A stretch of DNA of 64,000 nucleotides from Rosistilla oblonga. GTDB taxonomy: Bacteria > Planctomycetota > Planctomycetia > Pirellulales > Pirellulaceae. Where the stretch lies: the NCBI RefSeq assembly GCF_007751715.1, contig NZ_CP036292.1, forward strand, positions 3,849,339 through 3,913,338, in the 5' to 3' direction. This document shows positions 23,325-40,347 of this stretch, one piece after another; position 1 is the first letter of the stretch; every line of letters starts with the position of its first letter. Both the position numbers and the translations under genes were made by a program. The notes below the pieces were generated by a model. That model had not been told where the DNA came from. It saw only the letters and a list, made by a program, of their open reading frames with translations, and made no database searches.

Positions 23325-23981
23325 GAGGAAATCCCAACTCGTTAACGCAATGTGTTTTGAAAAAGGTTTGGTGTCCGATGGTTCGCTCGCAGCCCTCGCC
23401 CCGCAAAGGCTCGCCGCGGTTGCTATCGCCGACCGGGTAGCGTGAACGCGTTATATGTTATTTGATCACTTCTCGCGATCCACCGCTTTCCTACGTGAAG
23501 CCGTTGCAGCCGATCGGGCTGCACGGCTTGATCCGTTTGTACCCCACCAACATTTAGCGCAAGCTGCCCCGACGCCGCTGAAGCCTTCGCCAGCCGATGG
23601 CGCTGAAAACTGCTACCGCAGCGGGCTGATGCTGCCCGATTTCGCGGCAAACATCGCACAACATTAGGGTTGCCAATCGGAACTGCACAGAAATTGCGTG
23701 CATCCACCCGACGTCTATTACGCGACATTTCTCGAGGTTTCGGGAAACATTCCGCAGAAGCACTCTTCGAGCCTGTGGAAACGTTGTTTGAAACAAGACG
23801 GATGGCATGTCATTTGCGACGCGATCGAAAGCGAGAACGCCCCCCCAGCTGTCTTACAAATTTCCAAGATCTTCGTGGACAGCCTGTTGCGAAAGCGATA
23901 GATTGGGTTAACAGCTCGCCCCCCACCTTGCCAGCCTTTGTGGTTTTCCGTCACCACTCCCACCTCAAGCTGCGACAAAAT

Positions 23982-26225
23982 ATGACACACCGCGATCTCG
24001 ATCGTTTGCGACGAACCGTCACACGATGCTGTTTCGCCCTGCTCGCTCCGCTGGTTCTGTTCGGGAACGTTCATGCTGTTGAGTCCGAACCGACAGTCAG
24101 CTTCATCAACGATGTCGTCCCCGTGTTGACCAAGTCGGGCTGCAACACCGGCGTCTGCCACGCGAAAGCTGGCGGCGGGCAGAACGGTTTCCAGTTGTCG
24201 CTGTTCGGTTTTGAGCCGCAGGAAGATTACGACCACCTGGTGCTCGAAGGCCGCGGTCGTCGCCTGTTCCCGACCGATCCCGAACGCAGTCTGTTGCTAG
24301 TCAAAGCTGTCGGAGAGGTTCCCCACGGCGGCGGTGTTCGCTTGGACCCAAAATCCGAAGGCTACGCCACGTTGCGGCGCTGGATCGCTCAAGGAGCTCC
24401 AAATTCAACCGGTGCCGAACCGACGCTCACGTCGATCGAAGTCCTGCCGGGGCACGAAACGGTCGCCGCCGGATCGCAGCAACAACTCAAATCGATAGCC
24501 CACTATTCCGACGGCAGCAGCCGCGACGTGACGGAACTGGCCGTCTACGAATGCAACGATCGCGCGATGGCCGAAGTCAGCGAGACCGGGTTGGTGCGGA
24601 CCGAATCAATACCAGGCAAAGTTGCCGTGATGGTTCGCTACCAAGGTCAGGTCGCTGTCTTTAACGGCTCGATCCCGCTTGGGGCTCCAGTTCCCCAGCT
24701 GCCCGAATCGCGTAACTTCATCGACGACTTCGTCTTCGGCAATCTGAAGACGCTCGGCATTCCGCCATCTCCGGTTTGCGACGACGCCACGTTTATCCGC
24801 CGCGTCTCGTTGGATATCGCCGGTCGCTTGCCAACCGACGAGGAATCGCGAGCCTTCCTGGCAAACGAAGCTGCCGACAAACGCGATCAACTGATCGACG
24901 ATCTGCTGCAGAGTCCCGACTACGCCGACTACTTCGCGAACAAATGGACCTCGCTGCTGAAGAACCGCCGCGACGGTGCCAGCGATATCACTTCGAACTT
25001 CGCATTCCACGCCTGGATTCGCGACAGCCTGCTGGCCAACACGCCCTACGATCAACTCGCTCGCGAACTGCTGGCGGCAACCGGTACGATTATCGCCAAC
25101 CCACCGGTCGCTTGGTACAAGCGAGTCAAACAACCCCAGGAACAGATCGAGGACGTCGCCCAGTTGTTCCTTGGCGTTCGGATGCAATGCGCCCAGTGCC
25201 ATCACCATCCGTTTGAACGCTGGAGCCAAGACGACTATTACGGCTTGGCCGCCTTCTTCAGCCAAGTCGGCCGCAAACCGACCGACACCCGCGGCGAGGA
25301 TCTGATCTTCCATAAGCGAGGCATCGCCGGATCGAAGAACATCAAAACCGGAATGACAGTTCGCCCCGCCGCTTTGGGCGACGACGTTGGCGAGATCCCC
25401 GCCGACGAGGACCCACGGTTACGCTTGGCGAATTGGATGAGTCGCCCCGAGAATCCGTTTTTCGCCAAAGCGTTGGTCAATCGCTACTGGAAGCACTTCT
25501 TCGCCCGCGGCTTGATCGAACCTGAAGACGACATTCGCGACACGAACCCGCCGACCAATCCGGAGCTGTTGGCCGCGCTGGAAGAGAATTTCCTCAGCAG
25601 CGGATTCGACCTGAAACAACTGGTTCGCACGATCACGCAATCCAACGCGTATCAACTGTCCGCGACGCCGAACGAACACAATCTCGCCGATCGCCAAAAC
25701 TACTCCCGCTTCTACCCGCGGCGGATGCAAGCCGAAGTGATGCTCGATTCGATCGACCAATTCACCGGCGCGACGACTTCGTTTGCCAATCTCCCCGCCG
25801 GGACCCGCGCGATCGCATTGCCTGACAATAGCTACAACCGGGCCTCGCCGTTCCTGAAGGTCTTCGGTCGTCCCGAGAGTAGCAGCGTTTGCGAGTGCGA
25901 ACGCGTTCAATCAGCTTCGCTGGCGCAGAGTCTGCATCTGTTAAACGCTGCCGACATCAAAGGCAAGCTCGCGACCGCCAACGGCCGCGCCGACCGGTTG
26001 TCCAAAGCGGACGCTTCCGATACGGAAAAGATCACCGAACTCTATCTCGCTGCCTTCGCTCGCCCGCCCCGCGAGGAAGAGCTTCAAATCGCACTTGACT
26101 ATCTAGCCCAACCGTCGGTCGACGCCGACGGCAAGCCAATCGACGCCAAGGTCGCCGCCCGGAACAATTACCAAGATCTGGTTTGGGCATTGATCAACAC
26201 CAAAGAATTTTTGTTCAACCACTAA
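23982..26225 (+). CDS. Planctomycete cytochrome-c-like (PSCyt1) / Big_2 / DUF1549 / DUF1553 domain protein. The ORF is open from 23670.
   Basis: The signal peptide 'MTHRDLDRLRRTVTRCCFALLAPLVLFGNVHA' is followed by 'LTKSGCNTGVCHAKAGGGQNGFQLSLFG' (PSCyt). A Big_2-like segment follows. The DUF1549 motif is 'VSLDIAGRLPTDEESRAFL', and the DUF1553 region includes 'QCAQCHHHPFERW'. Confidence 0.85.
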   Translation: MTHRDLDRLRRTVTRCCFALLAPLVLFGNVHAVESEPTVSFINDVVPVLTKSGCNTGVCHAKAGGGQNGFQLSLFGFEPQEDYDHLVLEGRGRRLFPTDPERSLLLVKAVGEVPHGGGVRLDPKSEGYATLRRWIAQGAPNSTGAEPTLTSIEVLPGHETVAAGSQQQLKSIAHYSDGSSRDVTELAVYECNDRAMAEVSETGLVRTESIPGKVAVMVRYQGQVAVFNGSIPLGAPVPQLPESRNFIDDFVFGNLKTLGIPPSPVCDDATFIRRVSLDIAGRLPTDEESRAFLANEAADKRDQLIDDLLQSPDYADYFANKWTSLLKNRRDGASDITSNFAFHAWIRDSLLANTPYDQLARELLAATGTIIANPPVAWYKRVKQPQEQIEDVAQLFLGVRMQCAQCHHHPFERWSQDDYYGLAAFFSQVGRKPTDTRGEDLIFHKRGIAGSKNIKTGMTVRPAALGDDVGEIPADEDPRLRLANWMSRPENPFFAKALVNRYWKHFFARGLIEPEDDIRDTNPPTNPELLAALEENFLSSGFDLKQLVRTITQSNAYQLSATPNEHNLADRQNYSRFYPRRMQAEVMLDSIDQFTGATTSFANLPAGTRAIALPDNSYNRASPFLKVFGRPESSSVCECERVQSASLAQSLHLLNAADIKGKLATANGRADRLSKADASDTEKITELYLAAFARPPREEELQIALDYLAQPSVDADGKPIDAKVAARNNYQDLVWALINTKEFLFNH

Positions 26226-26238
26226 ACGGAAGCACAAA

Positions 26239-28485
26239 ATGCTGAAGAAATTTGCGATCGCCTCGGCATTGATCGCCGTCGTCACCTCGACCTCGATGGC
26301 CCAATCGGTCTGTCTGCCCGCGCCGCGTCTGTTGACCACGATGCCGATGGGGGGCCAAGTTGGCAGCGAGTTCGATGTTGCGATCACCGGCCAAACGATC
26401 GAGAACACCGATCAATTGTTGTTCTCCAGCCCGAAGATCACCGCGACACCCAAGCTGGACGCGTCTGGCAAACCGGTCGCCAATCAGTTTGTCGTTTCGA
26501 TTGCCGCCGATTGCCCTCCGGGAATCCATACAGCGAGGGTGATGTCCCGTTTGGGAATCTCGTCAGCTCGCGTCTTCACCGTCAGTGATCTCCCCGAAGT
26601 CACGCAGACCAAACCGAGTGCATCGGTCGAAACAGCGATGCCGATCGAAATCAACAGCATCTGCAACGCAACTCTTCCCGTCCGTGCAGCGAACCACTAT
26701 TCGTTCTCCGCGAAGAAGGGTCAGCGATTAGTCGTCGATTGCGCGGCCCCGGGGATCGATTCGAAAATGAATCCCGTTCTAATCTTGGCCGACGCCCAGG
26801 GACGCGACATGTTAGTCGAACGACGTGGCGGTGCCCTGGATTACACCGTCCCAGCCGATGGCGACTACATGGTCAAAGTCCATGACCTGACCTTCAAGGG
26901 AGGAGCGGAATGCTTCTACCGACTGGCGGTTCAAGAAGTCCCCGCCGACGCGCCACTTGCACGCCTGCCCAGCACTCGCGGCGTCGGCAGTTTTTCCTGG
27001 CCGCCAACTGGACTGGCCGCCGAAGCGTCAGCATCGGAGACCGAACCAAACAACGATCGCGAAACGGTTCAAGCGATCACGCTGCCGTGCGACATCGCGG
27101 GCAGTTTCTTCCCCGCGGCCGATGTCGATGCCTTCGAATTCACCGCCCAAAAGGGAGAGGACTGGTGGGTCGAAGTCGCTTCGGAACGACTCGGTCGCCC
27201 CACCGATGCTTCGATCATCGTTCAACAGGTGATCGGCGAAGGAGCCGATGAAAAGCTAGTCGATCTGGTCGAACTGTCCGATATCGCCAGTCCGATCAAA
27301 CGCTCCAGCAACGCCTACGCCTACGACGGCCCGCCCTACAATGCCGGTTCGACCGACATCCTTGGCAAGATGGAGATCAAAGAGGACGGAAAGTATCGTC
27401 TGCAGATCACCGATCTGTTTGGCGGAACGCGAAACGATCCCAACAACGTCTATCGATTGGTCATCCGGCAAGCGGAGCCCGATTTCGCTGTCGTCGCTTG
27501 GCCACTGCACATGGTCCTGCGGAACGGTGACCGCAACGCACTCTCCAAACCGCTAGCGCTCCGCGGTGGATCGACCGTCGCGTTGGAAGTGGTCGCCGTG
27601 CGACGCGACGGCTTCAACGGTGAGATCGAATTGACTCTGGAAAATCTCCCCGACGGTGTCACCACCGCCGGCCTGAAGATTCCCGCTGGCAAGGCGCGTG
27701 GTCTGATGCTGGTCACCGCGCATCAAGACGCGCCACGTGGCCTTACGATGGCGAAGTTCACCGCGACGGCAACCATAGGCGACAAACCGGTTACGCATCC
27801 GTGCCACGTCGCATCGGTCGCGTGGCCTGTGACTAACGCCTGGTCGGAAATCCCCGCTCCACGATTGTTAGCCGATATCCCCGTCTCGGTTGGCGGATCG
27901 GAGTTTGCCGCAATCACGATCGCTCCGACCGAAGAAAAGGTTTGGGAAGCCAAGGCGGGTGAAACGCTGACGATTCCGCTGCAACACGTCCGCCGTGGTG
28001 AATTCTCCGGCACGCTGTTGGGCCTGCGAACGATGGGCGCCGGATTTGAAGGCGTCCCCAAATTCGACCTCAAGCTGAACGAAGACGCCTCCGAAGCAGT
28101 CCTCGATCTGGCCAAGTTGAAGACGCCGCCTGGCGATTACACGATCGCATTCTACGGCAGCGCGGTTGCCAAGCACCGCGACAATCCCGATCGATTGGTC
28201 GCCGCTGAAACCGCCCACGCGCAGGCACAACAAACCGTTAACGACCTAACGGCCGAGGTGACGCGTCTAGCCAACGAAACCGCAACCGCTTCCGCCGCCC
28301 AAAAGGCCGAATCGCAAAAGCTTGCCGATGCGGTGGCGGAGCAAAAGAAAGCTGCCGAAGCAGCCTTGGCCGCCGCAGCAGCGGAGCTTGCGAAAGCAAA
28401 GAAGTCGACGCAGCCAAAAGATATCGCCGATATCGTCATCTCTCAACCGATCTCGATCCGTGTTAGCCCAGGTGAATCCAAATGA
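26239..28485 (+). CDS. Secreted protein with two pre-peptidase C-terminal (PPC)-like beta domains and a C-terminal Ala/Glu/Lys coiled coil. It is the middle gene of a conserved Planctomycete triad.
   Basis: The signal peptide is 'MLKKFAIASALIAVVTSTSMAQ'. PPC-like motifs are 'ETEPNNDRETVQAITLPCDIAGSFFPAADVDAFEFTAQKGEDWWVEV' and 'INSICNATLPVRAANHYSFSAKKGQRLVVD'. The coiled coil is 'AQQTVNDLTAEVTRLANETATASAAQKAESQKLADAVAEQKKAAEAALAAAAAELAKAKK'. Confidence 0.7.
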   Translation: MLKKFAIASALIAVVTSTSMAQSVCLPAPRLLTTMPMGGQVGSEFDVAITGQTIENTDQLLFSSPKITATPKLDASGKPVANQFVVSIAADCPPGIHTARVMSRLGISSARVFTVSDLPEVTQTKPSASVETAMPIEINSICNATLPVRAANHYSFSAKKGQRLVVDCAAPGIDSKMNPVLILADAQGRDMLVERRGGALDYTVPADGDYMVKVHDLTFKGGAECFYRLAVQEVPADAPLARLPSTRGVGSFSWPPTGLAAEASASETEPNNDRETVQAITLPCDIAGSFFPAADVDAFEFTAQKGEDWWVEVASERLGRPTDASIIVQQVIGEGADEKLVDLVELSDIASPIKRSSNAYAYDGPPYNAGSTDILGKMEIKEDGKYRLQITDLFGGTRNDPNNVYRLVIRQAEPDFAVVAWPLHMVLRNGDRNALSKPLALRGGSTVALEVVAVRRDGFNGEIELTLENLPDGVTTAGLKIPAGKARGLMLVTAHQDAPRGLTMAKFTATATIGDKPVTHPCHVASVAWPVTNAWSEIPAPRLLADIPVSVGGSEFAAITIAPTEEKVWEAKAGETLTIPLQHVRRGEFSGTLLGLRTMGAGFEGVPKFDLKLNEDASEAVLDLAKLKTPPGDYTIAFYGSAVAKHRDNPDRLVAAETAHAQAQQTVNDLTAEVTRLANETATASAAQKAESQKLADAVAEQKKAAEAALAAAAAELAKAKKSTQPKDIADIVISQPISIRVSPGESK

Positions 28486-29936
28486 GCAACCCGAAAACAA
28501 AGCCCTCCGAAATGCATTGCAGTGGCCCACGGAACTTTGGCCCCGGCAGCCGCCGCAGTTTCATGCGGTTGGGACTCGCGGGATTCGCCAGCATGAGCCT
28601 GCCCGGAATCATGCGACTGCAAGCGGCCAGCCCGCTGCCCACGCAAACCGCTGACGGCAAAGCGCGAAAAAAGACCGCGGTGATCATGGTCTGGCAGCCA
28701 GGCGGCAACTCGCACATCGACACTTACGATCCCAAGCCGTTGTCGGGCAGCGAATATCGCGGCCCGTTTAACACGATCCCGACCAAAGTTCCCGGGATGC
28801 GGTTCACCGAACTGCTGCCTCGCCAAGCAGCGATCGCCGACAAGTTCACCGTCTTGCGCAGCATGTACCAAGGGGCTGGCGGCCATCCCGCCGGTTCGAT
28901 GCAACTGCTGTCGGGCGATTCGGACACACGCGACAAACCGAAACCGCGGTTGCCCGATTGGATGTCGGTCGCCAATTACCTGCGATCCAAAGAGGGCCCG
29001 CGGACCAATCCGCTGCCCGCGTACGTCGGCGTTAATCCGCCACTCCAATACAACGGACCGGCATACCTGGGCGATGCCTACTCACCTTTTTCGGTCACCG
29101 GCGATCCAAACTCGCCCAAGTTCGTGGTCCCTAACATCGGCCTAACCGACGCCAACCAAGTCGCGCGGCTGGGACGACGAACAACGTTGCGGCAGCAACT
29201 GGATACGCTGGAACGATCGTTCGATCATTTTGGCGAGATGGAAGCGTTGGACGAATTCGAAACCCAGGCGATGACGCTGCTGACCAATCCCAAAACGAAA
29301 GACGCTTTCGATCTCACGCAAGAGGACGATCGCACGCGGGATCGCTACGGCCGCAACGCCTGGGGGCAACAACTGCTGCTCGCTCGCCGTTTAGTCGAAG
29401 CGGGCGTGGAGGTTTTGACGAGCAGTCTCCGCGGACCTCTGTGCGGTCGCGTCAATAACTGGGATGACCACGCGGTCAACCACCATATCTTTGATGCTCT
29501 GCGTTTCCGCGCCGACGCGTACGATCAAGCGGTCACGGCACTGATCGAAGACATCTACGAGCGTGGGCTGGACGAGCGCGTGATGGTCGTTGTCACCGGC
29601 GAATTCGGCCGGACTCCCAAGATCTCGCATCAACCGAGCACCGGTGCCGGAAACGCAAGCGCTCCGTCGGGAACGAAGCAGCCCGGCCGCGACCACTGGC
29701 CGCGCGCCTTCTCCAATATCTGGGCCGGCGGCGGAATCGAAACAGGTCGTTTTATCGGTGCGACCGATAAACGTGGCGAAGATGTTGTCGAGCGGCGTTG
29801 TGGCCCCGGCGACTTTTTGGCAACGATCTACCATCATCTGGGAATCGATTCCAAGAGCGTCTTCATCGAAGACTTTAATGGCCGACCGACACCGATCGTC
29901 GACCATGGTGCTCCGATTCCCGAACTGATGGGATAG
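28482..29936 (+). CDS. DUF1501 domain protein (sulfatase/alkaline-phosphatase-like fold) with a Tat signal
   Basis: The twin-arginine signal is 'SRRSFMRLGLAGFASMSLPGIMRLQAA'. Its start overlaps the upstream stop in an ATGA arrangement. The layout matches the other two DUF1501 genes in this window. Confidence 0.85.
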   Translation: MSNPKTKPSEMHCSGPRNFGPGSRRSFMRLGLAGFASMSLPGIMRLQAASPLPTQTADGKARKKTAVIMVWQPGGNSHIDTYDPKPLSGSEYRGPFNTIPTKVPGMRFTELLPRQAAIADKFTVLRSMYQGAGGHPAGSMQLLSGDSDTRDKPKPRLPDWMSVANYLRSKEGPRTNPLPAYVGVNPPLQYNGPAYLGDAYSPFSVTGDPNSPKFVVPNIGLTDANQVARLGRRTTLRQQLDTLERSFDHFGEMEALDEFETQAMTLLTNPKTKDAFDLTQEDDRTRDRYGRNAWGQQLLLARRLVEAGVEVLTSSLRGPLCGRVNNWDDHAVNHHIFDALRFRADAYDQAVTALIEDIYERGLDERVMVVVTGEFGRTPKISHQPSTGAGNASAPSGTKQPGRDHWPRAFSNIWAGGGIETGRFIGATDKRGEDVVERRCGPGDFLATIYHHLGIDSKSVFIEDFNGRPTPIVDHGAPIPELMG

Positions 29937-29967
29937 TTCAATCCGGCCAATTCGAAACACGATCATG

Positions 29968-30000
29968 CCCCAGGATGTTCTGCGTCCTGGGGCTCTTTCA
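29968..30000 (+). terminator. Putative intrinsic terminator after the DUF1501 gene
   Basis: GC-rich stem ccccagga-(9 nt)-tcctgggg, followed by 'ctctttcattg'. Confidence 0.5.
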
Positions 30001-30274
30001 TTGAATAGGCTAGCGAATCCTGGGGTTTAATGGTCTATGTGATTGGCGTTCAACAGCCGTCCGCTTTCGTTCCCACTTGCCATCCGGACGCTTTCCTCCA
30101 CGCCAATCGAGACCGAAGCGTACACTCCGCTTTACTTGGCTCAATAAAATTTTTTCCATTCTCGCGCCCGCTCCGTTACAACTTCAAGCCTGTTAACCGG
30201 CGGCAGTTTCACCTGTTCCGATCGATTTTGCGATCTATGTTTCCAGGTGCCCCTGCCAGATTTGTGCTGAAGGA

Positions 30275-30937
30275 GTGCTCGCCTTGTGGATTTATTTTGA
30301 ACGTGCAGCGGAGATTATCGCCGCCCAACCGGTGCTACCCGCATCGATTTTGTTGGCTTTCCTTGTCGCCTACTCGATCGTTTCCCTGTTTGGGCTGATC
30401 GATCTCGACATGGACGCCCCCGATTTCGATTTCGACGCCGATTTCGATTTGGGTTCGGCCGGCGGTTTTGGAATGCTCACGTTTCGATGGTTGAATCTAG
30501 CCCAGATTCCAATTGTAATCTGGGGAGGGCTCTTTACACTACTTTGGTGGATCACGTCAGCCGTGTTGTGGGTGACGTGGGATGCTTCCGATTACCAAGC
30601 GAATTGGTGGACCGGCGGGCTGCTGTCAGCTCGTTCGGCCGTAATCGGCGTGGTGCTGACCAAGTTTACGACCGAACCGATGAAGAAGTGGTTCGTGACC
30701 GCGCGATACAACGCGGAGATGTTGCTTGGTCAAGTCTGCCAAATTTGCACCGGCCAAGCCGACACCGACTTTGGCCAGGCTCGATTTAAAACGGACGCGG
30801 CGCCGTTGTTGTTAAACGTTCGCACCGACGGGGTAACTTTGAAAAAGGGTGACCTCGCCACAATTATCGACTTTGATCAAGAACGCCGGATATACACGGT
30901 AACCGCTATCGACGACGAGGTTCAAGCAGATGAGTAG
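30275..30937 (+). CDS. NfeD/YqiJ-like membrane protein, the usual partner of SPFH/flotillin proteins
   Basis: Several N-terminal TM helices are present ('VLPASILLAFLVAYSIVSLFGLI', 'IPIVIWGGLFTLLWWITSAVLWV', 'GGLLSARSAVIGVVL'). The C-terminal soluble beta domain is 'NVRTDGVTLKKGDLATIIDFDQERRIYTV'. The stop overlaps the flotillin start by 8 nt. Confidence 0.7.
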   Translation: MLALWIYFERAAEIIAAQPVLPASILLAFLVAYSIVSLFGLIDLDMDAPDFDFDADFDLGSAGGFGMLTFRWLNLAQIPIVIWGGLFTLLWWITSAVLWVTWDASDYQANWWTGGLLSARSAVIGVVLTKFTTEPMKKWFVTARYNAEMLLGQVCQICTGQADTDFGQARFKTDAAPLLLNVRTDGVTLKKGDLATIIDFDQERRIYTVTAIDDEVQADE

Positions 30938-33071
30938 CGTTTTGGTTTTGGGTCAGTTCTCTGACCATTGGTTTATCAACGGCATCGCGATCCTTGCGGT
31001 CGCGATCATCGGATTGCTCTTTCTGCTGGCCAGTTTCGCCGCGATGGCGAACCAGTTCTACCGCAAGGTCGGCCCCGACGAGGCGATCGTTCGAAGCGGT
31101 TGGGGCAAAATTCGAGTCGCCACCGGCAACGGTATCTTTGTCGTTCCAGTGATCCATCAATACGAGAAGATGGACCTGACCTTGAAGAGCTTCGAAATCG
31201 CCCGCGAAGGTTCCGAGGGTTTGATCTGCCAAGACAACATCCGCGCAGACATCAAAGTTGCCTTCTTCATCCGCGTCGACAAGAGCGAAGAAGAGATCCG
31301 CGAAGTCGCGCAATCGATCGGCGCCAAACGCTGCAGCCAGATCGATACGCTGCGTGAACTGTTCGACGCCAAGTTCAGTGAAGCTCTAAAAACCGTCGGC
31401 AAGCAGTTTGACTTCGTCGACCTGTACGACAAACGCGATAACTTCAAGGATCAGATCCTGAAAGTCATCGGTACCGATTTGAACGGCTACCGACTGGACG
31501 ATGCGGCGATCGACTTCTTGGAACAGACGCCGCTGGAATTGCTGAACCCCAACAACATTCTCGATGCCGAGGGTATCAAGAAAATTACCGAATTGACCTC
31601 GAAAGAAAAGGTCAAAGAGAACGCCTTCACGCGTGAAAAAGAGAAGACGCTGAAGCAACAGGACGTCGAGGCGGAAGAGACGATTCTGCAGCTGGAAAAG
31701 CAACGCATCGAAGCTAACGAAAAGCAACAACGCGAAGTCACCGAGATCTCCGCTCGCGAACGCGCCGCGGCCAAGAAGGTTCAAGAAGAACAACGGCTGG
31801 AGTCCGAACGAGCTCGGATCACGACCGAAGAGGAACTGGGCGTCGCCAACGAAAACAAGGAACGCCAGGTCTTGGTCGCATTGCGTGCCAAGGAACGCAC
31901 CGACGGGATCGAACAGGAACGCGTCCTGAAGGATCGCGAATTGGAAGCGACCGAGCGTGAACGCGTCGTCGGCATCGCTCAAGTCGAAAAAGAGAAGGCG
32001 ATCGAAGTCGAGAAGCGGAACATCCAAGAGGTCATCCGCGAACGCGTGGCCGTCGAACGAGCCGTCGTCGAAGAACAGGAAAAGATCAAGGACACCGAAG
32101 AGTTTGCGGCGGCGGACCGGCTGAAAAAGGTTCAGATCACCGCGGCGTCGATGACCGCCGAAGAATCGTTGATCAAAGAAACCAAGGCGGCCGAAGCGGC
32201 CAAGATGGCGGCCGAACTGTTGGCCGACAAGATCCGCATCGAAGCCGAAGCGTCTCGCGACCGTTCGGAAAAAGAAATGCAAGCGGCCAAGATGACGGCC
32301 GAAGCCGATGCAGCGAAAGCCGCAGCCAGCGGATTGGCTGAAGCCAAGGTGCAAGAAGCCCGCGCCGCATCGATGGAAAAAGAAGGCACCGCCGAAGCGG
32401 TCATCATCGAAAAGAAAGCTGTCGCCGAAGCGAAGGGTATCGAAGCCCGTGCGACTGCGATCGAGAAGGAAGGCTTGGCCGAAGCCAACGTCATGCAACA
32501 GAAGTACAGCAGCGAAGCGACCGGTATCACCGAGAAGGCCGAAGCGATGAAACTGCTGGACGGTGTCGGCAAAGAACACGAAGAGTTCAAGCTCAAACTG
32601 GACAAGGACAAGCAGGTCGAGATCGCGGCGATCGACGCACAACGCGGCATCGCCGAATCGCAAGCCGGTGTGGTTGGCGAAGCACTCAAAGCCGCTCGCA
32701 TCGACATCGTCGGTGGCGATGGCGAGTTCTTCGACCAGATCACTTCGGCGGTCAAGGGTGGCAAGGCGATCGATCGCTTTGTCTACAACAGCCGCGTAGC
32801 GACCGACGTCAAACAGACCTTCTTCAACGGCGACCCCGATTATTTTCGGGACAACCTGATGGACCTGGTCAACAAGTTCAACCTCAGCACCGACGACATC
32901 AAGGATCTTTCGATCGCCGCCTTGATCGCCAAGCTGATGGGACTGGCCAATACCGATGAAACCCGCAACCAACTGGGCAGCCTGTTAGGGATGGCCAGCA
33001 CCGCTGGGATCACCGAACGCAAGGTCGGTAAACTGGAAGCGAAGCCGTTGCAGAACGGGGCGAAGAGCTAA
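30930..33071 (+). CDS. Flotillin-family SPFH/Band-7 protein (YqiK/FloT-like) with a very long Glu/Ala/Lys-rich coiled coil
   Basis: The N-terminal membrane anchor is 'INGIAILAVAIIGLLFLLASFAAMA'. The SPFH core is 'VRSGWGKIRVATGNGIFVVPVIHQYEKMDLTLKSFEIAREGSEGLICQDNIRADIKVAFFIRV'. About 350 aa of EA-repeat coiled coil follow it, as is typical of flotillins. Confidence 0.85.
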   Translation: MSSVLVLGQFSDHWFINGIAILAVAIIGLLFLLASFAAMANQFYRKVGPDEAIVRSGWGKIRVATGNGIFVVPVIHQYEKMDLTLKSFEIAREGSEGLICQDNIRADIKVAFFIRVDKSEEEIREVAQSIGAKRCSQIDTLRELFDAKFSEALKTVGKQFDFVDLYDKRDNFKDQILKVIGTDLNGYRLDDAAIDFLEQTPLELLNPNNILDAEGIKKITELTSKEKVKENAFTREKEKTLKQQDVEAEETILQLEKQRIEANEKQQREVTEISARERAAAKKVQEEQRLESERARITTEEELGVANENKERQVLVALRAKERTDGIEQERVLKDRELEATERERVVGIAQVEKEKAIEVEKRNIQEVIRERVAVERAVVEEQEKIKDTEEFAAADRLKKVQITAASMTAEESLIKETKAAEAAKMAAELLADKIRIEAEASRDRSEKEMQAAKMTAEADAAKAAASGLAEAKVQEARAASMEKEGTAEAVIIEKKAVAEAKGIEARATAIEKEGLAEANVMQQKYSSEATGITEKAEAMKLLDGVGKEHEEFKLKLDKDKQVEIAAIDAQRGIAESQAGVVGEALKAARIDIVGGDGEFFDQITSAVKGGKAIDRFVYNSRVATDVKQTFFNGDPDYFRDNLMDLVNKFNLSTDDIKDLSIAALIAKLMGLANTDETRNQLGSLLGMASTAGITERKVGKLEAKPLQNGAKS

Positions 33072-33088
33072 CCAGCTGACAGCCCGAT

Positions 33089-33127
33089 CGCCCCGAGGGA
33101 TTCCCTGGGGGCGGTCGTCATTTTTTG
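33089..33127 (+). terminator. Possible leaky intrinsic terminator between flotillin and the giant ATPase gene
   Basis: Imperfect hairpin gccccgaggga/tccctgggggc, followed by 'gtcgtcattttttg'. Confidence 0.35.
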
Positions 33128-33307
33128 CACCATGCTTCCACGCCGTTGCATCGACGTTTTCTGCCCAGCCGACGGAGCATCGCCTCCGCTCGCGCTGGCA
33201 AACGCGTTTGCTGACAGCCCAACAAACGTTGGCCGCCGCGGCTCTCAGTCAATCGAACACCGCCGCCCCATCGGGACGCCGCACCGCACGGGGATGAACG
33301 AACACCT

Positions 33308-36300
33308 ATGAGCGAAACAAAACTTGCTGCCGGAACGTACGAGATCCTCCGCAACCGGATGCGCGATGCGGCTGGTGATCTCCGTTCGCGGTTGGACCAG
33401 CTCAACGCCGACCGCTCCGAAGTCTTCGGCAACATCGACACGGTCCTGCTGGCGACCGAGCGAATCACCACTGAACACAACTGTGTGCCGCGCGATCTGT
33501 TGCCCGTCGGCAAGCATTTCCTGTTTGGATACAACGTCCAATTTGGTCTGAAGACCGAAACCCATCTGAACGACGTCTTCGCCGTCTATCGTTTCGAAGA
33601 CCACCAGTTCCACGAAGAGTCGCTCGAATTGATCGGCGACGAACGTTTCGAACGCGACTTCCACGAGATCTATCGCTACTACAAAGGAGCGGCGTTCGCG
33701 AAGTTCTTTCAGACCGGCCCGTTCGTCCACATGGTCTTTCGCGTCGGCAAAAATCCGTCCGATATCAAGACATTCAAATGGCGGATCCAAGCCAATCAAC
33801 TGCAATACATCGATAACCGCAGCGATCACGAGGTCCGATACCCGCCGCAGCACGAATTCCTTTGGAAGCGGACGACGCGCGATCAACACGTCGCTGGCGT
33901 GCATCCCCATATCTCGATCGAAGACCAAGTCTTTGTCGAAACCGTTGGCGGCGACCTTACGATCAAAGTCGAAAACAGTACGCAAAGCGGCCGCGGAATC
34001 TACGCCGAACCTGTCGATAACGCCGACCAAACACTCGACGATGCGGAAACCTATTACGCATTGTTGGGCAATCTGATCCTACTGAAGATCCTCCCCTATC
34101 AAGAGCGCAACTACCGCTATCTGCTGTACAACGCCAAGATCCAAAAAGCGATGCGGTTGGATGCGATCGAGCACTCCTGCGTCCTGTTGCCCGACGATCA
34201 CGGGATCATCTTCCCCGACGGCTATTACCTGCAGACCGGCGAATACAAGATCTTCGACCACGGCCTGACCGATCTGATCTATGAGAAGACGATCGCCGCC
34301 CCCAACGGCGAAGACTTCATCTATCTGTTCTACAATCGCGCCAGCGGTGCCTATGTTCAACTGCGTTACAACCTGATCCGGCAACAAGTCGAAACGCCAT
34401 TGGTTTGCCATGGCCAAGCGTTTTTCCACGCCGGCGAAATGGTTTGCTTCAAAGGACAAGACGACCAACCGCAGAAGCACCACGCGCTGCAGATCTGGCA
34501 AACGCCCTTTGTCGGATCCGACTTCGTCCCCGACAGCAACACCGATTCGCTGCTCTACAAGATCGGCAACAAAGAACTTGTCCGCGGGATGGCCGAATGC
34601 CATGAGATCCTGCAGCTGGTCGAGAAAGACGATTCCTACGAGGGTCTGTACGTCGATCTCGTCAAAAAGACTTCCGACATCCTCGACAGCTACTTTTGGT
34701 TAGACAAAGCCGAAACGCATCACCCCGATCAACCGCTGCGAGCGATCGGCGAGGCATCGAAGAGTGCTGTCGAAGAGTTTGAAAAAGTAGTCCGCCTGCG
34801 CCGCGAAACCGAAGCGGCAACCGTCGTCGTCGAAGAAGCGGTCACCGAGTTGCTCAAGGCGATCGACCGATCGCGTTTCGAAGCCGTCGATGCCTTTGTC
34901 ACGCGACTCGCCGAACTGCGGACGCAGCGTGGCCACGCGATTGGGCTCCGCGAATTGCGGTACGTCGACGAAGAACGTATCGAGAAACTGGAATCGCAAA
35001 TCGGCGAACAAGCCGATCGGCTGAGCCGCCGCTGTGTCGAATTCATGTTGTCCGACGGGGCGTTGGAACCGTACGAGGCGCGGGTCGAAAAAGCGGCTGC
35101 GTCCGTCCAAAGCATCGAAAAGGTGACCGACGCAAAGCGGCTGGAAAAGGATATCGACGAAGCCGGCAGCCAATTGGAACTGCTGACCGAAACCGTCAGT
35201 AACCTGCAGATCGAAGATACGACGAAGCGGACCGAGATCATCGATGGAATCAGCGACGTCTTCGCTTCGCTGAACCGAGTGCGTAGCGCTCTGAAGGCTC
35301 GCATGGGCGATCTGGTCCGGACCGAGGGACGCGCCGAGTTTGCATCGCAGTTGAAACTGTTGGATCAAACCGTCAACGGTTACCTCGACGTCTGCGATTC
35401 GCCTGAAAAGTGCGACAACTACCTGACCAAGGTGATGGTCCAACTGGAGGAACTCGAAGGGCGATTCGCCGAATTCGATGAGTTTGTTGGCCAGTTGGCG
35501 GAGAAACGCGAAGAGCTTTACAACGCGTTTGAATCGCGGAAAGTTCAGCTTGTCGAAGCCCGAAACCGCCGTGCCGAAGCGCTCGGTTCAGCTGCCGATC
35601 GGATCCTGAAAGGGATCGCATCGCGGATGAAATCGTTCGACACTGTCGACACGATCCATGCCTATTTCGCCGCCGACCTGATGGTGGAAAAGGTCCGAGG
35701 CATCGTCAACCAGCTGACGGAATTGGACGATACCGTCCGCATCGAAGACATTCAAAGCCGACTGAAGAGCGTCCGCGAAGATGCGATCCGGCAATTGAAG
35801 GATCGCCAGGAACTGTTCGTCGACGGCGGCACCGGGATCAAATTGGGCAAGCATCAATTCGGCGTCAACACCCAGACGTTGGATCTGACGACGGTGATGC
35901 GGAACGATCAACTGAATCTCCACCTGACGGGGACTCAGTTTTTTGAACCGCTGTCGCATCCCGATCTCGATGACGTCCACGACTTGATGAATCAGGAAGT
36001 GGTCAGCGAAAACCGCGATGTCTACCGCGGCGAGTACTTGGCCTATGCACTCTACAATGAACTGTCGCAGCCGGCGCGGCGAAAGCACGTTGCGAAAGAT
36101 TCCGAAACATCGCAGGACGACGACGCGGCAGAGGAAGCCGCCGAATCGAACCGCGACGACGATACCGCGCCGCACATGGACAAGCGGACTTTCGAAAGAC
36201 TATCCGAAGCCGAACAGATTCGTTGGGTGCAACAGCAGATGTCGGGGCGTTACTCCGAAGGCTACGCCAAGGGTGTTCACGACCACGACGCGGCGAAGCT

Positions 36301-38671
36301 GTTAGCCGCCTTGCTGAAGATCGACCGCACGATCGGTCTCGCCAAACATCGCCCCGACGTCCGAGCGGCGGCTTGGTATTGGTGGTCGCATCTGTTGATC
36401 GGCGGCACGCGGAAGATGTACACCGGCTGGATCGGGGGCTTTCAAAAATTGGCCCAGGCGTTCCCACAAGCCCAGCCGGCCGTCGAGTTCCGCGCCCGTT
36501 TGACCGCGGAAATCGCTGACGATCCGACGTTCGCTGACCTCTTTGCCGATGTCCGGCCCGAGGAAGCTGCCGCCTACCTATTCGATCAATTGGTCGACCC
36601 CAGCGATCTCCCAGTCGTTAGCCGTCGCGCGGCGCGGTTGTATGAGGATTTTTGCGAACACGTTGTCGGGGAAGAGCGGCAGAGTTTGGTCGCCGCGGGC
36701 CTAAAAGACAACGCCAAACAGCCAGCCGAGTCGATGGTCTTGGCTCGCAACTGGTCTGCAGCATTTTTGGCAATGCATGACGATCACGACGGACTCGATT
36801 CGAACGATCTCTATCGCGACGAACTGGCGCGGCTGCTGATCGACGGTGCTCCCGATCCGGCTCAGATCTCCGACGCGCACGTCGCGGTCGAACTGACGAA
36901 CCTCGCTGGCGCCCATCGCCGCATCAACAAGGGGCAGATGACGCTCCGCTATCACGACATCTTCCAACGCTTGGGACACTTCACGCGTGAGACCGTTCCG
37001 CGTTTCCAACGTTTGCACGACACGAAGCAGCGTCTGGTCGACGAGGCTCGCGACGCGATGAAGCTGGAAGAGTTCCGGCCGCGGGTCCTAACCAGCTTTG
37101 TTCGCAACCGCTTGTTGGACGAAGTCTATCTGCCGATGATCGGCGACAACCTGGCGAAACAGATCGGCGTGGCGGGCGAAGGGAAGCGGACCGATCGGAT
37201 GGGCCTGCTGCTGCTGATCAGTCCTCCCGGTTACGGCAAGACGACCCTGATGGAATACATCGCCAATCGGCTGGGGATCATCTTTATGAAGATCAACGGC
37301 CCGGCGATCGGTCATGGCGTGACCTCCTTGGATCCCTCGGAAGCTCCCAACGCCGCGGCTCGCGAAGAGATCGAGCGGCTGAATCTGGCGCTCGAAATGG
37401 GAGACAACGTGATGCTATATCTGGACGATATCCAGCACACGCATCCCGAACTACTGCAGAAGTTCATCTCGTTGTGCGATGCGACGCGAAAGATCGAAGG
37501 CGTTTGGAAGGGCAAGACGCGGACCTACGATTTCCGCGGCCGACGCGTTGCCGTGGTGATGGCCGGAAACCCGTACACCGAAAGTGGCGATCGCTTCCAG
37601 ATCCCGGACATGCTCAGCAATCGCGCCGATGTCTACAACCTCGGCGAGATCATCGGCGATTCGGCTGAAGCGTTCGAGATGAGTTATCTGGAGAACTGTC
37701 TGACCAGCAACACCGCCCTGCAACCGCTGGCCAGCGCGAGCCCTCGCGACGCCCGAACGTTGATCCGCGCGGCAACGCTTGGTTCGATGGAAGGGATCGA
37801 TCTGGAGAGCAACCTGTCGATGGATCAGGTTCGCGAGATGTACAGCGTGCTGCGGAAACTGATCAAGGTTCGCGACGTCGTGCTGCGAGTCAACCGCCAA
37901 TACATTCGGTCGGCCGCCCAGGCGGACGCCTACCGCACCGAACCGCCATTCAAATTGCAGGGAAGTTACCGCAACATGAACCGTATCGCCGAAAAGGTGG
38001 TCGCGGTGATGAACGACCAAGAACTGCAATCGCTGATCGTCGGCAACTACGAACAGGATTCGCAAACGCTGACGACCGACAACGAATCGAACGTTCTGAA
38101 GTTCAAAGAGTTGATGGGAATCCTGACTCCCGAAGAAGCGGAGCGTTGGGAAGCGATCAAGTATGCGTTTTCCGAAAGCGTCCGTTTCCAGGGGCTCGAC
38201 AGTGGCGATCAAGTCGGCCAATTGATGAAACAGTTGGGCGGATTGCGCGACGGATTGGAATCGATTCGCCGCGTGATGGTTCAAGCCGTTGCCGGCAACG
38301 ACAACTCGCAAACCGATCGGCTGCACGATGAACTGGCTTCGTTGCGCAATGGGATGCTGGCCGTTGGGCAACAGTTGAGCGAGACGCTCGGCAGCACCTC
38401 GACCCAGCTGACGACCCTCGCTCAACAAAACTCGTCCGGCCCACCGCCTCAAAAAGTAATGGTCCAGCACAAAGTGCCGCGCGTGATGTTGGATGTCGTC
38501 AAAACGCAGTTCCAATTGATGCAGCAATGGATTCCATTGTTAACCGCCGTGGGAACCAAAGGCCCCGAATACGATAACATCGCCAAAGCTGTCGACGCGT
38601 GTCTAAAAGACTACCAACGTCTGCAAGAAGATCTCACGTCGGCGGCGAAGCCGGGGAAAGCGAAGAAATAA
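33308..38671 (+). CDS. Giant (1787 aa) soluble multidomain protein with a dynein/MoxR (AAA_5)-like AAA+ ATPase module near the C-terminus. The overall family is unknown.
   Basis: The ORF is continuous over 5.4 kb on the same strand as NfeD and flotillin. Walker A is 'LLISPPGYGKTTLMEY' (nt ~37222-37260). The Walker B-like motif is 'VMLYLDDIQH' (nt ~37411-37440). The AAA_5-like sensor segment is 'VAVVMAGNPYTESGDRFQIPDMLSNRADVY'. There is no signal peptide or TM helix. There is an acidic insert 'SETSQDDDAAEEAAESNRDDDTAP' and extensive predicted coiled coil. Confidence 0.7.
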   Translation: MSETKLAAGTYEILRNRMRDAAGDLRSRLDQLNADRSEVFGNIDTVLLATERITTEHNCVPRDLLPVGKHFLFGYNVQFGLKTETHLNDVFAVYRFEDHQFHEESLELIGDERFERDFHEIYRYYKGAAFAKFFQTGPFVHMVFRVGKNPSDIKTFKWRIQANQLQYIDNRSDHEVRYPPQHEFLWKRTTRDQHVAGVHPHISIEDQVFVETVGGDLTIKVENSTQSGRGIYAEPVDNADQTLDDAETYYALLGNLILLKILPYQERNYRYLLYNAKIQKAMRLDAIEHSCVLLPDDHGIIFPDGYYLQTGEYKIFDHGLTDLIYEKTIAAPNGEDFIYLFYNRASGAYVQLRYNLIRQQVETPLVCHGQAFFHAGEMVCFKGQDDQPQKHHALQIWQTPFVGSDFVPDSNTDSLLYKIGNKELVRGMAECHEILQLVEKDDSYEGLYVDLVKKTSDILDSYFWLDKAETHHPDQPLRAIGEASKSAVEEFEKVVRLRRETEAATVVVEEAVTELLKAIDRSRFEAVDAFVTRLAELRTQRGHAIGLRELRYVDEERIEKLESQIGEQADRLSRRCVEFMLSDGALEPYEARVEKAAASVQSIEKVTDAKRLEKDIDEAGSQLELLTETVSNLQIEDTTKRTEIIDGISDVFASLNRVRSALKARMGDLVRTEGRAEFASQLKLLDQTVNGYLDVCDSPEKCDNYLTKVMVQLEELEGRFAEFDEFVGQLAEKREELYNAFESRKVQLVEARNRRAEALGSAADRILKGIASRMKSFDTVDTIHAYFAADLMVEKVRGIVNQLTELDDTVRIEDIQSRLKSVREDAIRQLKDRQELFVDGGTGIKLGKHQFGVNTQTLDLTTVMRNDQLNLHLTGTQFFEPLSHPDLDDVHDLMNQEVVSENRDVYRGEYLAYALYNELSQPARRKHVAKDSETSQDDDAAEEAAESNRDDDTAPHMDKRTFERLSEAEQIRWVQQQMSGRYSEGYAKGVHDHDAAKLLAALLKIDRTIGLAKHRPDVRAAAWYWWSHLLIGGTRKMYTGWIGGFQKLAQAFPQAQPAVEFRARLTAEIADDPTFADLFADVRPEEAAAYLFDQLVDPSDLPVVSRRAARLYEDFCEHVVGEERQSLVAAGLKDNAKQPAESMVLARNWSAAFLAMHDDHDGLDSNDLYRDELARLLIDGAPDPAQISDAHVAVELTNLAGAHRRINKGQMTLRYHDIFQRLGHFTRETVPRFQRLHDTKQRLVDEARDAMKLEEFRPRVLTSFVRNRLLDEVYLPMIGDNLAKQIGVAGEGKRTDRMGLLLLISPPGYGKTTLMEYIANRLGIIFMKINGPAIGHGVTSLDPSEAPNAAAREEIERLNLALEMGDNVMLYLDDIQHTHPELLQKFISLCDATRKIEGVWKGKTRTYDFRGRRVAVVMAGNPYTESGDRFQIPDMLSNRADVYNLGEIIGDSAEAFEMSYLENCLTSNTALQPLASASPRDARTLIRAATLGSMEGIDLESNLSMDQVREMYSVLRKLIKVRDVVLRVNRQYIRSAAQADAYRTEPPFKLQGSYRNMNRIAEKVVAVMNDQELQSLIVGNYEQDSQTLTTDNESNVLKFKELMGILTPEEAERWEAIKYAFSESVRFQGLDSGDQVGQLMKQLGGLRDGLESIRRVMVQAVAGNDNSQTDRLHDELASLRNGMLAVGQQLSETLGSTSTQLTTLAQQNSSGPPPQKVMVQHKVPRVMLDVVKTQFQLMQQWIPLLTAVGTKGPEYDNIAKAVDACLKDYQRLQEDLTSAAKPGKAKK

Positions 38672-38982: not shown

Positions 38983-40347
38983 TCACTCAAGCAATGCTTG
39001 CGCGGCCTCTGGCGGTGCTGGCGGATAGACTTCGCCGGGATCGGGCAGTTGGAACTGACCGCTCAGCCATGGAATCGCGAGGTATCCCTTGAAGTAGTGA
39101 TGCGCGGCATGCACGTTGGCGTAGTCCAGCCATTCGGTTGAACTCAGGCCCTCGGGGATCGTTTCGCCATCACGTCGATTCGCCGGATCATCGTATTGCG
39201 GGTAGTAGTGGATCGAAACGTTATCCGCTGCTCCGGCGATCTGATACGCCTTGCGCACGAGGTTCAATGAATGGGTCGGTCCGCCTTCGGTCACGATCAG
39301 TGGACGCGGCGCGATGGCGGCGACCAAGTCGGGATAGTCGAACCACTGCCACAGTCCCGGAACGGAGTGGCCTAACCAGTTCGCGCCGGGCCTGATCCCA
39401 CGGTGGTTCGGCTTGGTACTGGCTTTTGCCCGTTCCCTCGTGGCGGCGAGGTAATCGTTCCACACGACGCCTTGGATCTGCGGGTCGAGCACGGCCAGCG
39501 CCAGCAGAGCCTCCGTTCCGAGTGAATGGCCACTTACGGCAATGCGTTCGGCGTCGACGTTCGGCTGCTCGCGCACCCACTCCAAAATCTGTAGCTTTTG
39601 GAACACAGAGAGGGCGATAAAGCTGCGTCCCATGTCGATCAGGTAGCGGGAGATTGTATTGCGATCGTCCATCGTGGTGCCTCGATAACGGGCCAGGTCG
39701 GACAGTTCTCCGGTCCCTGGATGATCGACCGCCACTGCGACAAAACCAGCTCGGGCATATTGCACCGCCTGCTGGTTACGCTGCGCGTGAAGCCAGCCAT
39801 CATGATTGCGGTCATCGGGCTTGAATGCCGGCCCCAGCGGCGGCTCGCCGGCCAGATTCTCTTTGGTCCCCGATGAACCGGGGATGCACATGATCGCCGG
39901 TGCCGGATTTGCGGGTGTCGCGCTATTGGGGACCAGTACGAGGAAGGGAACGACGCTGCCCGGTTCGGGATAGAGTTCCCATTTCTGCAGCACATACCCT
40001 TCCCGTTTTCGAATCCAAAGCCTGCGTGGTTCGGGCTGAGCGACCGGTTCCGGGAAATTCATCAACTCCAGCAACTTGGCCCGCACCTGCAACTGCCACT
40101 GCGCGAATTCATCCGATGTGAACTCCGGGTCGAATGCCAGTTTCGGTTGCGAGTTCCGTAACAGATACTGCTGGAATCCCCGTGTACTCAAATGACGCCC
40201 GTCAGCGCGTCCGCTCCGTATTACGCTCTCTTTCTCGACGTCCAACTTCTGCCCCAACGCGGGCATAACCAGTGCAAACATCCACACAGCGGTGGCAACG
40301 GGACGAGAGATGGCGATCCTTCGCCTAGTCAGGTGGGTCCTAGTCAT
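38983..40347 (-). CDS. Secreted alpha/beta-hydrolase (esterase/peptidase S9/CocE-like)
   Basis: The signal peptide is 'RRRIAISRPVATAVWMFALVMPALGQ'. The nucleophile elbow is 'VSGHSLGTEALLA' (GxSxG). Length is 454 aa. Confidence 0.7.
   Translation of the reverse strand: MTRTHLTRRRIAISRPVATAVWMFALVMPALGQKLDVEKESVIRSGRADGRHLSTRGFQQYLLRNSQPKLAFDPEFTSDEFAQWQLQVRAKLLELMNFPEPVAQPEPRRLWIRKREGYVLQKWELYPEPGSVVPFLVLVPNSATPANPAPAIMCIPGSSGTKENLAGEPPLGPAFKPDDRNHDGWLHAQRNQQAVQYARAGFVAVAVDHPGTGELSDLARYRGTTMDDRNTISRYLIDMGRSFIALSVFQKLQILEWVREQPNVDAERIAVSGHSLGTEALLALAVLDPQIQGVVWNDYLAATRERAKASTKPNHRGIRPGANWLGHSVPGLWQWFDYPDLVAAIAPRPLIVTEGGPTHSLNLVRKAYQIAGAADNVSIHYYPQYDDPANRRDGETIPEGLSSTEWLDYANVHAAHHYFKGYLAIPWLSGQFQLPDPGEVYPPAPPEAAQALLE

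Follow-up and report, generated by a model that had tools for sequence, protein, structure and literature searches.

A conserved YqiJ-like/flotillin operon extended by a giant DUF3686 AAA+ protein in Rosistilla oblonga, a candidate membrane-stress module

Analysis of a 64,000-nucleotide (nt) window from the genome of Rosistilla oblonga (Pirellulaceae, Planctomycetota; contig NZ_CP036292.1, positions 3,849,339 to 3,913,338) revealed three genes on the same (+) strand across positions 30275-38671 of the window. They encode a YqiJ/NfeD-like membrane protein, a flotillin-type SPFH protein and a giant AAA+ protein, and together they form one conserved unit. On balance, we lean towards reading the locus as a yqiJ-yqiK-type NfeD/flotillin operon extended by a conserved DUF3686 MoxR-like AAA+ protein, that is, a membrane-stress module in which the ATPase would dock on and remodel or recycle flotillin and, where it is present, PspA. 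The original prediction for this DNA had proposed three co-directional open reading frames (ORFs) with these identities and an 8-nt overlap between the first two, and each of these points was borne out (overlap at 30930-30937). It had also noted a gap ahead of the giant gene; this gap exists, with a length of 236 nt instead of 237 nt.

Conservation of the trio was examined in a scan of one genome per species, which identified 578 confirmed giant-gene loci; the best 80 of the 578 were analyzed. Nine of the 80 end at or within approximately 260 nt of the giant gene start, leaving 71 assessable loci from Planctomycetota, Bacteroidota, Verrucomicrobiota, Kiritimatiellota, Desulfobacterota and Clostridia. 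In 65 of the 71 loci, the same strand carries an SPFH homologue directly upstream, and a YqiJ-like gene preceded the SPFH gene in 53 loci of the best-80 set. The distance between the SPFH and giant genes had a median of 129 nt and was 150 nt or less in 35/65 loci. The trio was also verified at seven of seven further loci, from Pseudomonas fluorescens pQBR103, Vibrio campbellii, Streptomyces, Deinococcus, Hymenobacter replicons, Sulfidibacter (Acidobacteriota) and Sumerlaeota, and both locus sets together place it in at least 11 bacterial phyla. Co-localization is thus found elsewhere, and the adjacency in the window, which had been taken as meaningful in the original prediction, is not fortuitous. 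Members of the trio are also carried on replicons of P. fluorescens SBW25 (pQBR103), Proteus mirabilis and V. campbellii, and in Hymenobacter. The pairwise identity matrices of the SPFH and giant proteins were correlated (Pearson r = 0.78, 54 loci), as expected for any co-inherited pair; with no control gene for comparison, this correlation was given no weight. In 23 loci, mostly from Bacteroidota and Verrucomicrobiota, the SPFH gene is separated from the giant gene by one to three small variable genes. These inserts include DMP19-like, DUF3997 and DUF3592 genes and some without a family (L018 8615-9701, L062 7624-9741, L036 9223-9906, L032 766-1470), and the interval looks like an insertion hot spot inside the conserved operon.

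Unbiased clustering of all ORFs flanking the 80 loci returned just three other families that recur, each located 5' of the YqiJ-like gene: PspA_IM30 (19 loci), CesT_Tir_1 (17 loci) and a divergent regulator with helix-turn-helix (HTH) and S24 domains (17 loci). PspA is co-encoded in approximately one quarter of the loci. A CesT/Tir-like gene and PspA precede the trio in Bacteroidota and on pQBR103, and the CesT/Tir-PspA-regulator layout was also seen, with independent annotation, on a Hymenobacter plasmid. Neither DNA-repair genes nor a nuclease recurred among the neighbours of the 80 loci, and no conserved protease neighbour was found there. On pQBR103, a 425-kb environmental megaplasmid (L081, record positions 84437-97641), the trio belongs to a 12-gene string in which it is preceded by YjfI, PspA, rhomboid, DUF2491, DUF350, DUF1190 and glutathionylspermidine synthase genes; a phospholipase D family gene lies approximately 8 kb downstream of this trio.

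The second gene encodes a flotillin-type protein with one hydrophobic segment, an N-terminal membrane anchor at amino acids (aa) 12-44 by hydropathy, followed by the SPFH domain, an extended helical region rich in Glu, Ala and Lys, and a C-terminal part that is conserved. Searched at full length, the 713-aa protein matched nothing in Pfam (including the Flot model), NCBIfam or PDB sequences. These empty searches suggested that it was not an SPFH protein, a reading overturned by a Band_7 match (E = 3.6e-14) when aa 1-257 were scanned alone; the full-length result is a filter artefact caused by the Glu/Ala/Lys-rich helical region. Full-length long-form flotillins at two other loci (L087 5451-7796 and L088 5598-7700) were likewise without a Pfam match in our scans and in precomputed tables. 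Automated annotation will therefore often overlook SPFH genes of this kind, and the linkage will be under-counted by Pfam-based neighbourhood tools. The window protein is 31% identical to Escherichia coli YqiK over 445 aa (E = 6e-49, 168 bits), its close homologues carry the names flotillin or YqiK, and its closest PDB sequence match is flotillin-1, a weak one (E = 0.02). Compared with one another across phyla, giant-linked SPFH proteins scored 287-710 bits, against the 168 bits between the window protein and YqiK. The window flotillin exceeds E. coli YqiK in length by 160 aa, and the giant-linked SPFH proteins share conserved C-terminal segments without a counterpart in YqiK (aa ~547-582 and 620-650 of the window protein). 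From these comparisons of sequence, the giant-linked flotillins look like a distinct long subfamily. In both Roseiconus lacunae (P0183/P0184) and R. nitratireducens (P0220/P0228), a pair of closely related entries for long-form flotillins is recorded on a single contig, which hints at paralogues or alternative start calls.

The 220-aa product of the first gene has clear hydrophobic segments at approximately aa 17-46 and 75-100 by hydropathy, a weaker third segment at approximately aa 112-133 that was read from the sequence and falls below the scan threshold, and a C-terminal NfeD-type soluble domain. Scored alone against Pfam YqiJ_N, it reached 17.5 bits, under the cutoff of 23. Among 26 orthologues, nine matched YqiJ_N (best E = 3.6e-8) and two matched NfeD, and a profile of the 26 aligned with E. 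coli YqiJ nearly end to end (aa 3-195; hhalign probability 96.8%, E = 2.3e-10). Taken together, the YqiK identity and the YqiJ profile match identify genes 1 and 2 as a yqiJ-yqiK-type pair, with an anchored SPFH domain, a YqiK-like helical flotillin and a coupled upstream YqiJ/NfeD-type partner. The same arrangement, a membrane protein followed by a tightly coupled anchored flotillin, is found in E. coli yqiJ-yqiK and in Bacillus subtilis yuaF-floT (SPFH2 with an NfeD2 partner; Hinderhofer et al. 2009, PMC2636767). The window differs from E. coli K-12 yqiJK, which has no third gene, in its third gene and in the longer flotillin with C-terminal segments of its own. An acidic D-x-D-x-D repeat loop follows the first membrane segment of the YqiJ-like protein (30395-30460, aa 41-62; DLDMDAPDFDFDADFDL in the window) and occurs, with varying length, in every YqiJ-like protein of the module that was aligned. 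This loop might bind cations or polyamines; beside the polyamine idea stands the glutathionylspermidine-synthase-family gene in the pQBR103 version of the operon.

The giant protein contains no hydrophobic segment by hydropathy, in agreement with its earlier description as soluble, and matches a database record of R. oblonga at 100% identity. Pfam searches identified DUF3686 at aa 24-463 (E = 1.4e-191) and DUF7902 at aa 585-666. The original prediction had left about 1300 aa of the protein unplaced; 440 aa of it are DUF3686, modelled as a beta-propeller, and DUF7902 is present in addition. Two AlphaFold models were built from 36-sequence alignments, with a mean predicted local distance difference test score (pLDDT) of 84 and 77. 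They predicted an N-terminal helix (aa 3-40), the propeller, a long helical stalk, a small beta domain (~aa 843-881), an acidic linker of low model confidence (~aa 925-952), an all-helical domain, the AAA+ module and a C-terminal helical region (Table 1). Foldseek matched the propeller to propellers of six to seven blades (CyRPA, paraoxonase, clathrin terminal domain) at E values of about 1e-5 and low TM-scores. Matches of the N-terminal model to clathrin and IFT-A were rejected as evidence for a coat protein, as only generic propellers were returned. The first part of the C-terminal helical region is conserved (for example YRTEPPFKLQGSYRNMN), and its last ~150 aa are variable and modelled with low confidence. 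When the protein was cut into five segments and searched against Pfam, no new family was obtained for aa 680-1290 or 1490-1787; matches to ATG17-like, Exo70 and DHC_N1 lay in helical regions below the cutoff and were rejected. PDB sequence and profile matches were limited to the P-loop region. No SMC/SbcC-type ABC head, nuclease or DNA-binding domain was detected in the giant protein with Pfam, NCBIfam and segment scans, and no protease domain with Pfam and segment scans.

The single ATPase of the giant protein is the AAA+ module near its C-terminus, where Pfam gave weak matches to AAA, AAA_5 and RuvB_N and where no SMC_N, AAA_23 or SbcC match was found that would indicate membership of the SbcC/SMC/RecN group. 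Walker A lies at aa 1305-1313 (SPPGYGKTT), and LDDIQH at aa 1372-1377 contains the Walker B motif DDIQH (aa 1373-1377; 37424-37438). Both elements, named in the original prediction as GYGKTT and LDDIQH, are present and invariant: Walker A SPPGYGKT, D1373-D1374 in DDIQH, N1421 and R1439 were identical in 37/37 diverse relatives. The Walker B motif had been called degenerate; with the DD pair invariant across the family, it is a fixed variant and not decay. The motif is similar to the 'DDIQ' Walker B found in DnaA-type, switch-like initiator ATPases, although it sits in a MoxR-like fold. The modelled fold was closest to MoxR-type NorQ and CbbQ and to midasin, with RuvB and MCM placed at similar rank by Foldseek. 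The module has a core with Walker A and B, sensor 1 and arginine finger, a conserved 18-residue loop after strand 2 and a predicted beta-hairpin between Walker B and sensor 1. On the predicted structure, the module is assigned to the MoxR-like group.

The DUF3686-type family comprises 439 clusters at 50% identity (E ≤ 1e-30), its listed full-length members are mostly 1500-2000 aa long, and the giant gene is present in many Pirellulaceae genera at 61-66% identity. One member from a eukaryotic protein set (P0449, source 'eukprot') is 58% identical to the window protein and most likely represents bacterial contamination of that data set. Pfam records DUF3686 in eukaryotes, an occurrence that may rest on contamination cases such as P0449.

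Table 1. Features of the trio locus and its 5' flank in the window
Feature	Position	Strand	Basis or remark
Terminator-like hairpin, 12 pairs (8 G-C), 3' of upstream DUF1501 gene	29967..29993	+	Hairpin scan and sequence
YqiJ/NfeD-like inner-membrane protein	30275..30937	+	GTG start, 220 aa
Flotillin/YqiK-like SPFH protein	30930..33071	+	ATG start, 713 aa
SPFH/Band_7 domain (aa 46-188)	31065..31493	+	Band_7 match on N-terminal fragment
Hairpin, stem 33085-33117, T6 run 33121-33126, 3 nt apart	33085..33126	+	Folding scan
Giant soluble protein, database name 'DNA repair ATPase'	33308..38671	+	ATG start, 1787 aa
Predicted beta-propeller, aa 46-398, core of DUF3686	33443..34501	+	AlphaFold, pLDDT mostly 85-93; Foldseek
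Helical stalk, aa 415-836, helices of up to 58 residues, contains DUF7902	34550..35815	+	Pfam, AlphaFold, segment scan
All-helical domain, ~aa 960-1180, no Pfam or PDB match	36185..36847	+	AlphaFold, segment scan
AAA+ module, ~aa 1299-1490	37202..37777	+	Walker A, Walker B, N1421, R1439
C-terminal helical region, ~aa 1505-1787	37820..38668	+	Alignment, AlphaFold, segment scan

At its 5' side, the trio is separated by 281 nt without genes from the terminator-like hairpin at 29967-29993, which is predicted to close the upstream operon and mark the 5' boundary of the unit. The downstream neighbour gene (38983-40347) is on the opposite strand, and the trio therefore forms a bounded unit. An ORF at 30030-30398 (122 aa) overlaps the start of the first gene, has no family match and was rejected as spurious. 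The products of the co-directional upstream operon (23670-29993) are a PSCyt2/PSD1 protein of 851 aa, a protein of 748 aa whose match to PPC (pre-peptidase C-terminal) is weak and sub-threshold, and a DUF1501 protein of 484 aa; gene sets like this are typical of planctomycetes, and it is unconnected with the trio. The wider surroundings in the window consist of ordinary metabolism and planctomycete PSCyt/DUF1501 genes.

The imperfect hairpin plus T-run previously noted in the gap between the flotillin and giant genes was recovered with a folding free energy of -30.5 kcal/mol (z = -3.3) for the stem, and an Rfam scan of the locus returned no family. Similar hairpins were present in 7/33 other loci with a short SPFH-to-giant gap. 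A general conserved attenuator was rejected on this count, and the hairpin is therefore a local feature. As a candidate partial terminator, it would reduce how much AAA+ protein is made compared with the scaffold.

The original prediction had regarded the system as undescribed. Its neighbourhood and its abbreviated form are already contained in a comparative-genomics study by Ravi et al. 2024 (mSystems 9:e00847-23, PMC11237479), which describes a CesT/Tir-PspA-YqiJ/YuaF-band-7/flotillin-(beta-propeller + coiled coil + AAA+) neighbourhood, reports that 'abbreviated' operons without PspA are more widespread, notes phospholipase D in some operons and proposes a chaperone-like or membrane-dynamics role. 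The link of PspA with band-7 and NfeD proteins was also reported by Popp et al. 2022. The window shares with the neighbourhood of Ravi et al. the three core proteins, their order and orientation and the domain description of the giant, an AAA+ protein with N-terminal beta-propeller and coiled coil encoded after a band-7/flotillin gene. The full layout, including the divergent HTH + protease regulator, is reproduced by our Flavobacteriia and Hymenobacter loci, and Dokdonia donghaensis (ANH61663.1), the table example of that study, has the same gene order as the Flavobacteriia loci. The window differs from the full form in lacking the CesT/Tir-PspA pair and the regulator and, by its gene content, matches the PspA-less ('abbreviated') form of this Psp-associated neighbourhood. 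No papers were found in literature searches for DUF3686, for PF12458 or for flotillin together with 'DNA repair ATPase'; the only results for YqiJ with AAA+ were Ravi et al. 2024 and one unrelated paper, and for pQBR103 with PspA one unrelated review. The trio system is thus known as a comparative-genomics observation, to which the window contributes an example of the abbreviated form from a planctomycete, and the 2024 publication limits the newness of the window. The treatment there takes a few sentences and one table row, with no linkage statistics, structural model, AAA+ clade or experiment. New here are the quantified linkage, its extent over at least 11 phyla, a domain map with confidence values, the MoxR-like assignment, the invariant DD pair, the giant-linked flotillins as an apparently distinct long subfamily and the 33085-33126 hairpin as a local feature.

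Our reading of the giant protein as an energy-dependent partner of the flotillin pair draws on the SPFH linkage, the Psp neighbours, the flotillin subfamily, the invariant catalytic residues, the MoxR-like fold, the neighbourhood and role put forward by Ravi et al. 2024 and the precedent of HflK/C-FtsH for an SPFH scaffold working with an AAA+ machine (cited in PMC13086221). The gene identities, the domain anatomy, the linkage and the PspA association at other loci are shown by this analysis; the contacts between the proteins, the ring, the ATPase activity, the substrate and the role in the cell are inferred, as follows. The flotillin and the YqiJ-like protein would build a large oligomeric scaffold at the inner membrane, on its cytoplasmic side, to which the giant protein would be recruited via its beta-propeller and/or helical stalk; the docking site may be provided by the flotillin C-terminal segments absent from E. 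coli YqiK. The AAA+ module would assemble as a ring and spend ATP on remodelling, taking apart or recycling the scaffold. At loci that also encode PspA, the module would act on PspA polymers too, or on clients bound by the scaffold. The role would be envelope-stress protection or membrane repair, and in the window the hairpin and T-run probably keep the ATPase sub-stoichiometric.

The proposed logic, a cytoplasmic AAA+ protein recycling a membrane-bound polymer, is that of Vps4 and ESCRT-III, the superfamily to which PspA/Vipp1 belongs, and the comparison is made by analogy. The giant differs from Vps4 in having no MIT domain and an AAA+ module outside the classical clade, and its constant partner is flotillin and not PspA. 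A more specific proposal, which we offer as tentative, is that the DUF3686 giant is the dedicated ATP-driven assembly/disassembly factor of a long-form flotillin cage, a 'Vps4/NSF for flotillin' that would dock on the C-terminal segments absent from YqiK and cooperate with ESCRT-III-like PspA in membrane repair. Compared with the MoxR-type remodellers NorQ-NorD, CbbQ-CbbO and RavA-ViaA and with midasin, the giant has a Walker B DD instead of DE, no conserved VWA/MIDAS partner, approximately 1300 residues before the module (propeller, stalk and helical domain) and a helical C-terminal region; its single AAA+ module further distinguishes it from midasin.

Several observations weigh against an ATP-driven remodeller of the flotillin scaffold. 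Six of the 71 assessable loci (L013, L014, L017, L022, L028 and L045) have no adjacent SPFH gene, which means that adjacency is not a strict requirement for the ATPase; three of these six have less than 1.5 kb of upstream sequence. No aromatic pore-loop motif was read from the sequence of the strand 2-helix 2 loop, and the Walker B residue that is Glu in most motors is Asp here, which makes a slow switch no less plausible than a processive motor. The usual partners of MoxR-type ATPases are VWA/MIDAS proteins, and no such partner was conserved among the clustered neighbours of the 80 loci or present in the window flanks. No PspA, CesT_Tir or HTH-S24 homologue was found in the 64-kb window at E ≤ 1. 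In the window the giant gene is set apart by 236 nt with a strong hairpin and T-run, and may be transcribed separately. Literature searches found no experimental work on any member of the giant family. Upstream of giant genes without an SPFH neighbour, a STAND-type NTPase with a TPR protein (L022 4339-6984), a Uma2 endonuclease-like gene (L045 5921-6508) and a DUF559 gene (L017 818-1258) were observed, which suggests local rearrangement by mobile or defence-type DNA.

Other explanations were weighed against the same data. The giant could be an unfoldase or extractase that acts on clients and not on the scaffold, with the flotillin/YqiJ scaffold holding damaged or unassembled membrane proteins, as a protease-less analogue of HflK/C-FtsH. 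The trio linkage applies equally to this possibility. Staphylococcus aureus FloA with NfeD is reported to stabilize unfolded proteins without ATP (PMC11222466; PMC13086221), to which an ATPase would add turnover, and SPFH proteins are known to pair with the FtsH protease. The pairing of an SPFH scaffold with an AAA+ protein at the inner membrane is shared with HflK/C-FtsH and with mitochondrial prohibitin and its m-AAA protease. However, FtsH is membrane-anchored, a classical AAA protein and an M41 protease, whereas the giant is soluble and MoxR-like; the SPFH protein in the window belongs to the flotillin type and not the HflK/C type. Given that the giant has neither a protease domain, a conserved protease neighbour nor an aromatic pore-loop motif, and that its fold is nearest to MoxR-type remodellers and not to classical unfoldases, we regard client processing as rather unlikely. 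A mainly structural giant, in which propeller and stalk tie flotillin patches to another structure and the AAA+ module is a slow nucleotide switch, would fit the approximately 420 residues in long helices, the generic fold matches of the N-terminal model (including the clathrin terminal domain and IFT-A subunits) and the invariant DD Walker B, a feature also found in DnaA and other switch ATPases of the initiator type. However, all of the catalytic residues are invariant, the AAA+ fold is nearest to the active remodellers NorQ and CbbQ, and the propeller matches are generic with low TM-scores, which makes this alternative improbable.

The original prediction had named membrane repair and defence among the possible functions. 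The membrane side gains support from the recurrent PspA linkage; the defence side found no support. An anti-phage or anti-invader module, with the giant NTPase sensing infection and the SPFH/NfeD pair perturbing the membrane, could account for trio copies on large plasmids, for loci near mobile or defence-like genes (DMP19-like, DUF559, Uma2 and STAND NTPase), for the LexA/S24-type regulator of Bacteroidota loci and for phospholipase D, encoded downstream of the trio on pQBR103 and in some operons of Ravi et al. (PMC11237479). Yet the sole match in PADLOC-DB 2.0 was a weak coiled-coil hit to LmuB (E = 8e-6) confined to the helical stalk of the giant (aa 489-786), with none for the other two proteins, and no homologue was found in 50,697 phage records. 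The presence of the gene in many Pirellulaceae genera looks stable and vertically inherited and not like patchy defence cargo, no extra neighbours other than Psp components recur, and the window neighbourhood is of the ordinary metabolic and planctomycete kind; a defence role is quite improbable on these grounds. The remaining explanation takes the database name at face value, as a DNA-repair ATPase whose adjacency to flotillin is functionally meaningless. Its sole support is the name itself, on Pfam DUF3686 and on NCBI and UniRef records, for which no paper was found. With the SPFH and YqiJ-like adjacency kept in 11 phyla, no DNA-repair type of head, nuclease or DNA-binding domain in the giant, no recurrent repair genes around it and RuvB matches that are generic to AAA+ proteins (confined to the P-loop region in sequence, and of low TM-score in Foldseek), we consider this explanation highly improbable. 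The widespread label 'DNA repair ATPase', which thousands of database entries bear, finds no support in this analysis.

The function of bacterial flotillins such as YqiK and FloT is debated, and the general view treats them as scaffolds that are passive and independent of ATP. A giant AAA+ protein kept beside one flotillin subfamily across at least 11 phyla, and repeatedly joining PspA operons, points to energy-dependent scaffold dynamics or membrane repair, and the trio offers an experimental handle in the form of three genes and clear catalytic residues to mutate. If the proposed remodelling of flotillin by the DUF3686 giant is true, this protein would be the first known energy-consuming partner of bacterial flotillin scaffolds, in at least 11 phyla.

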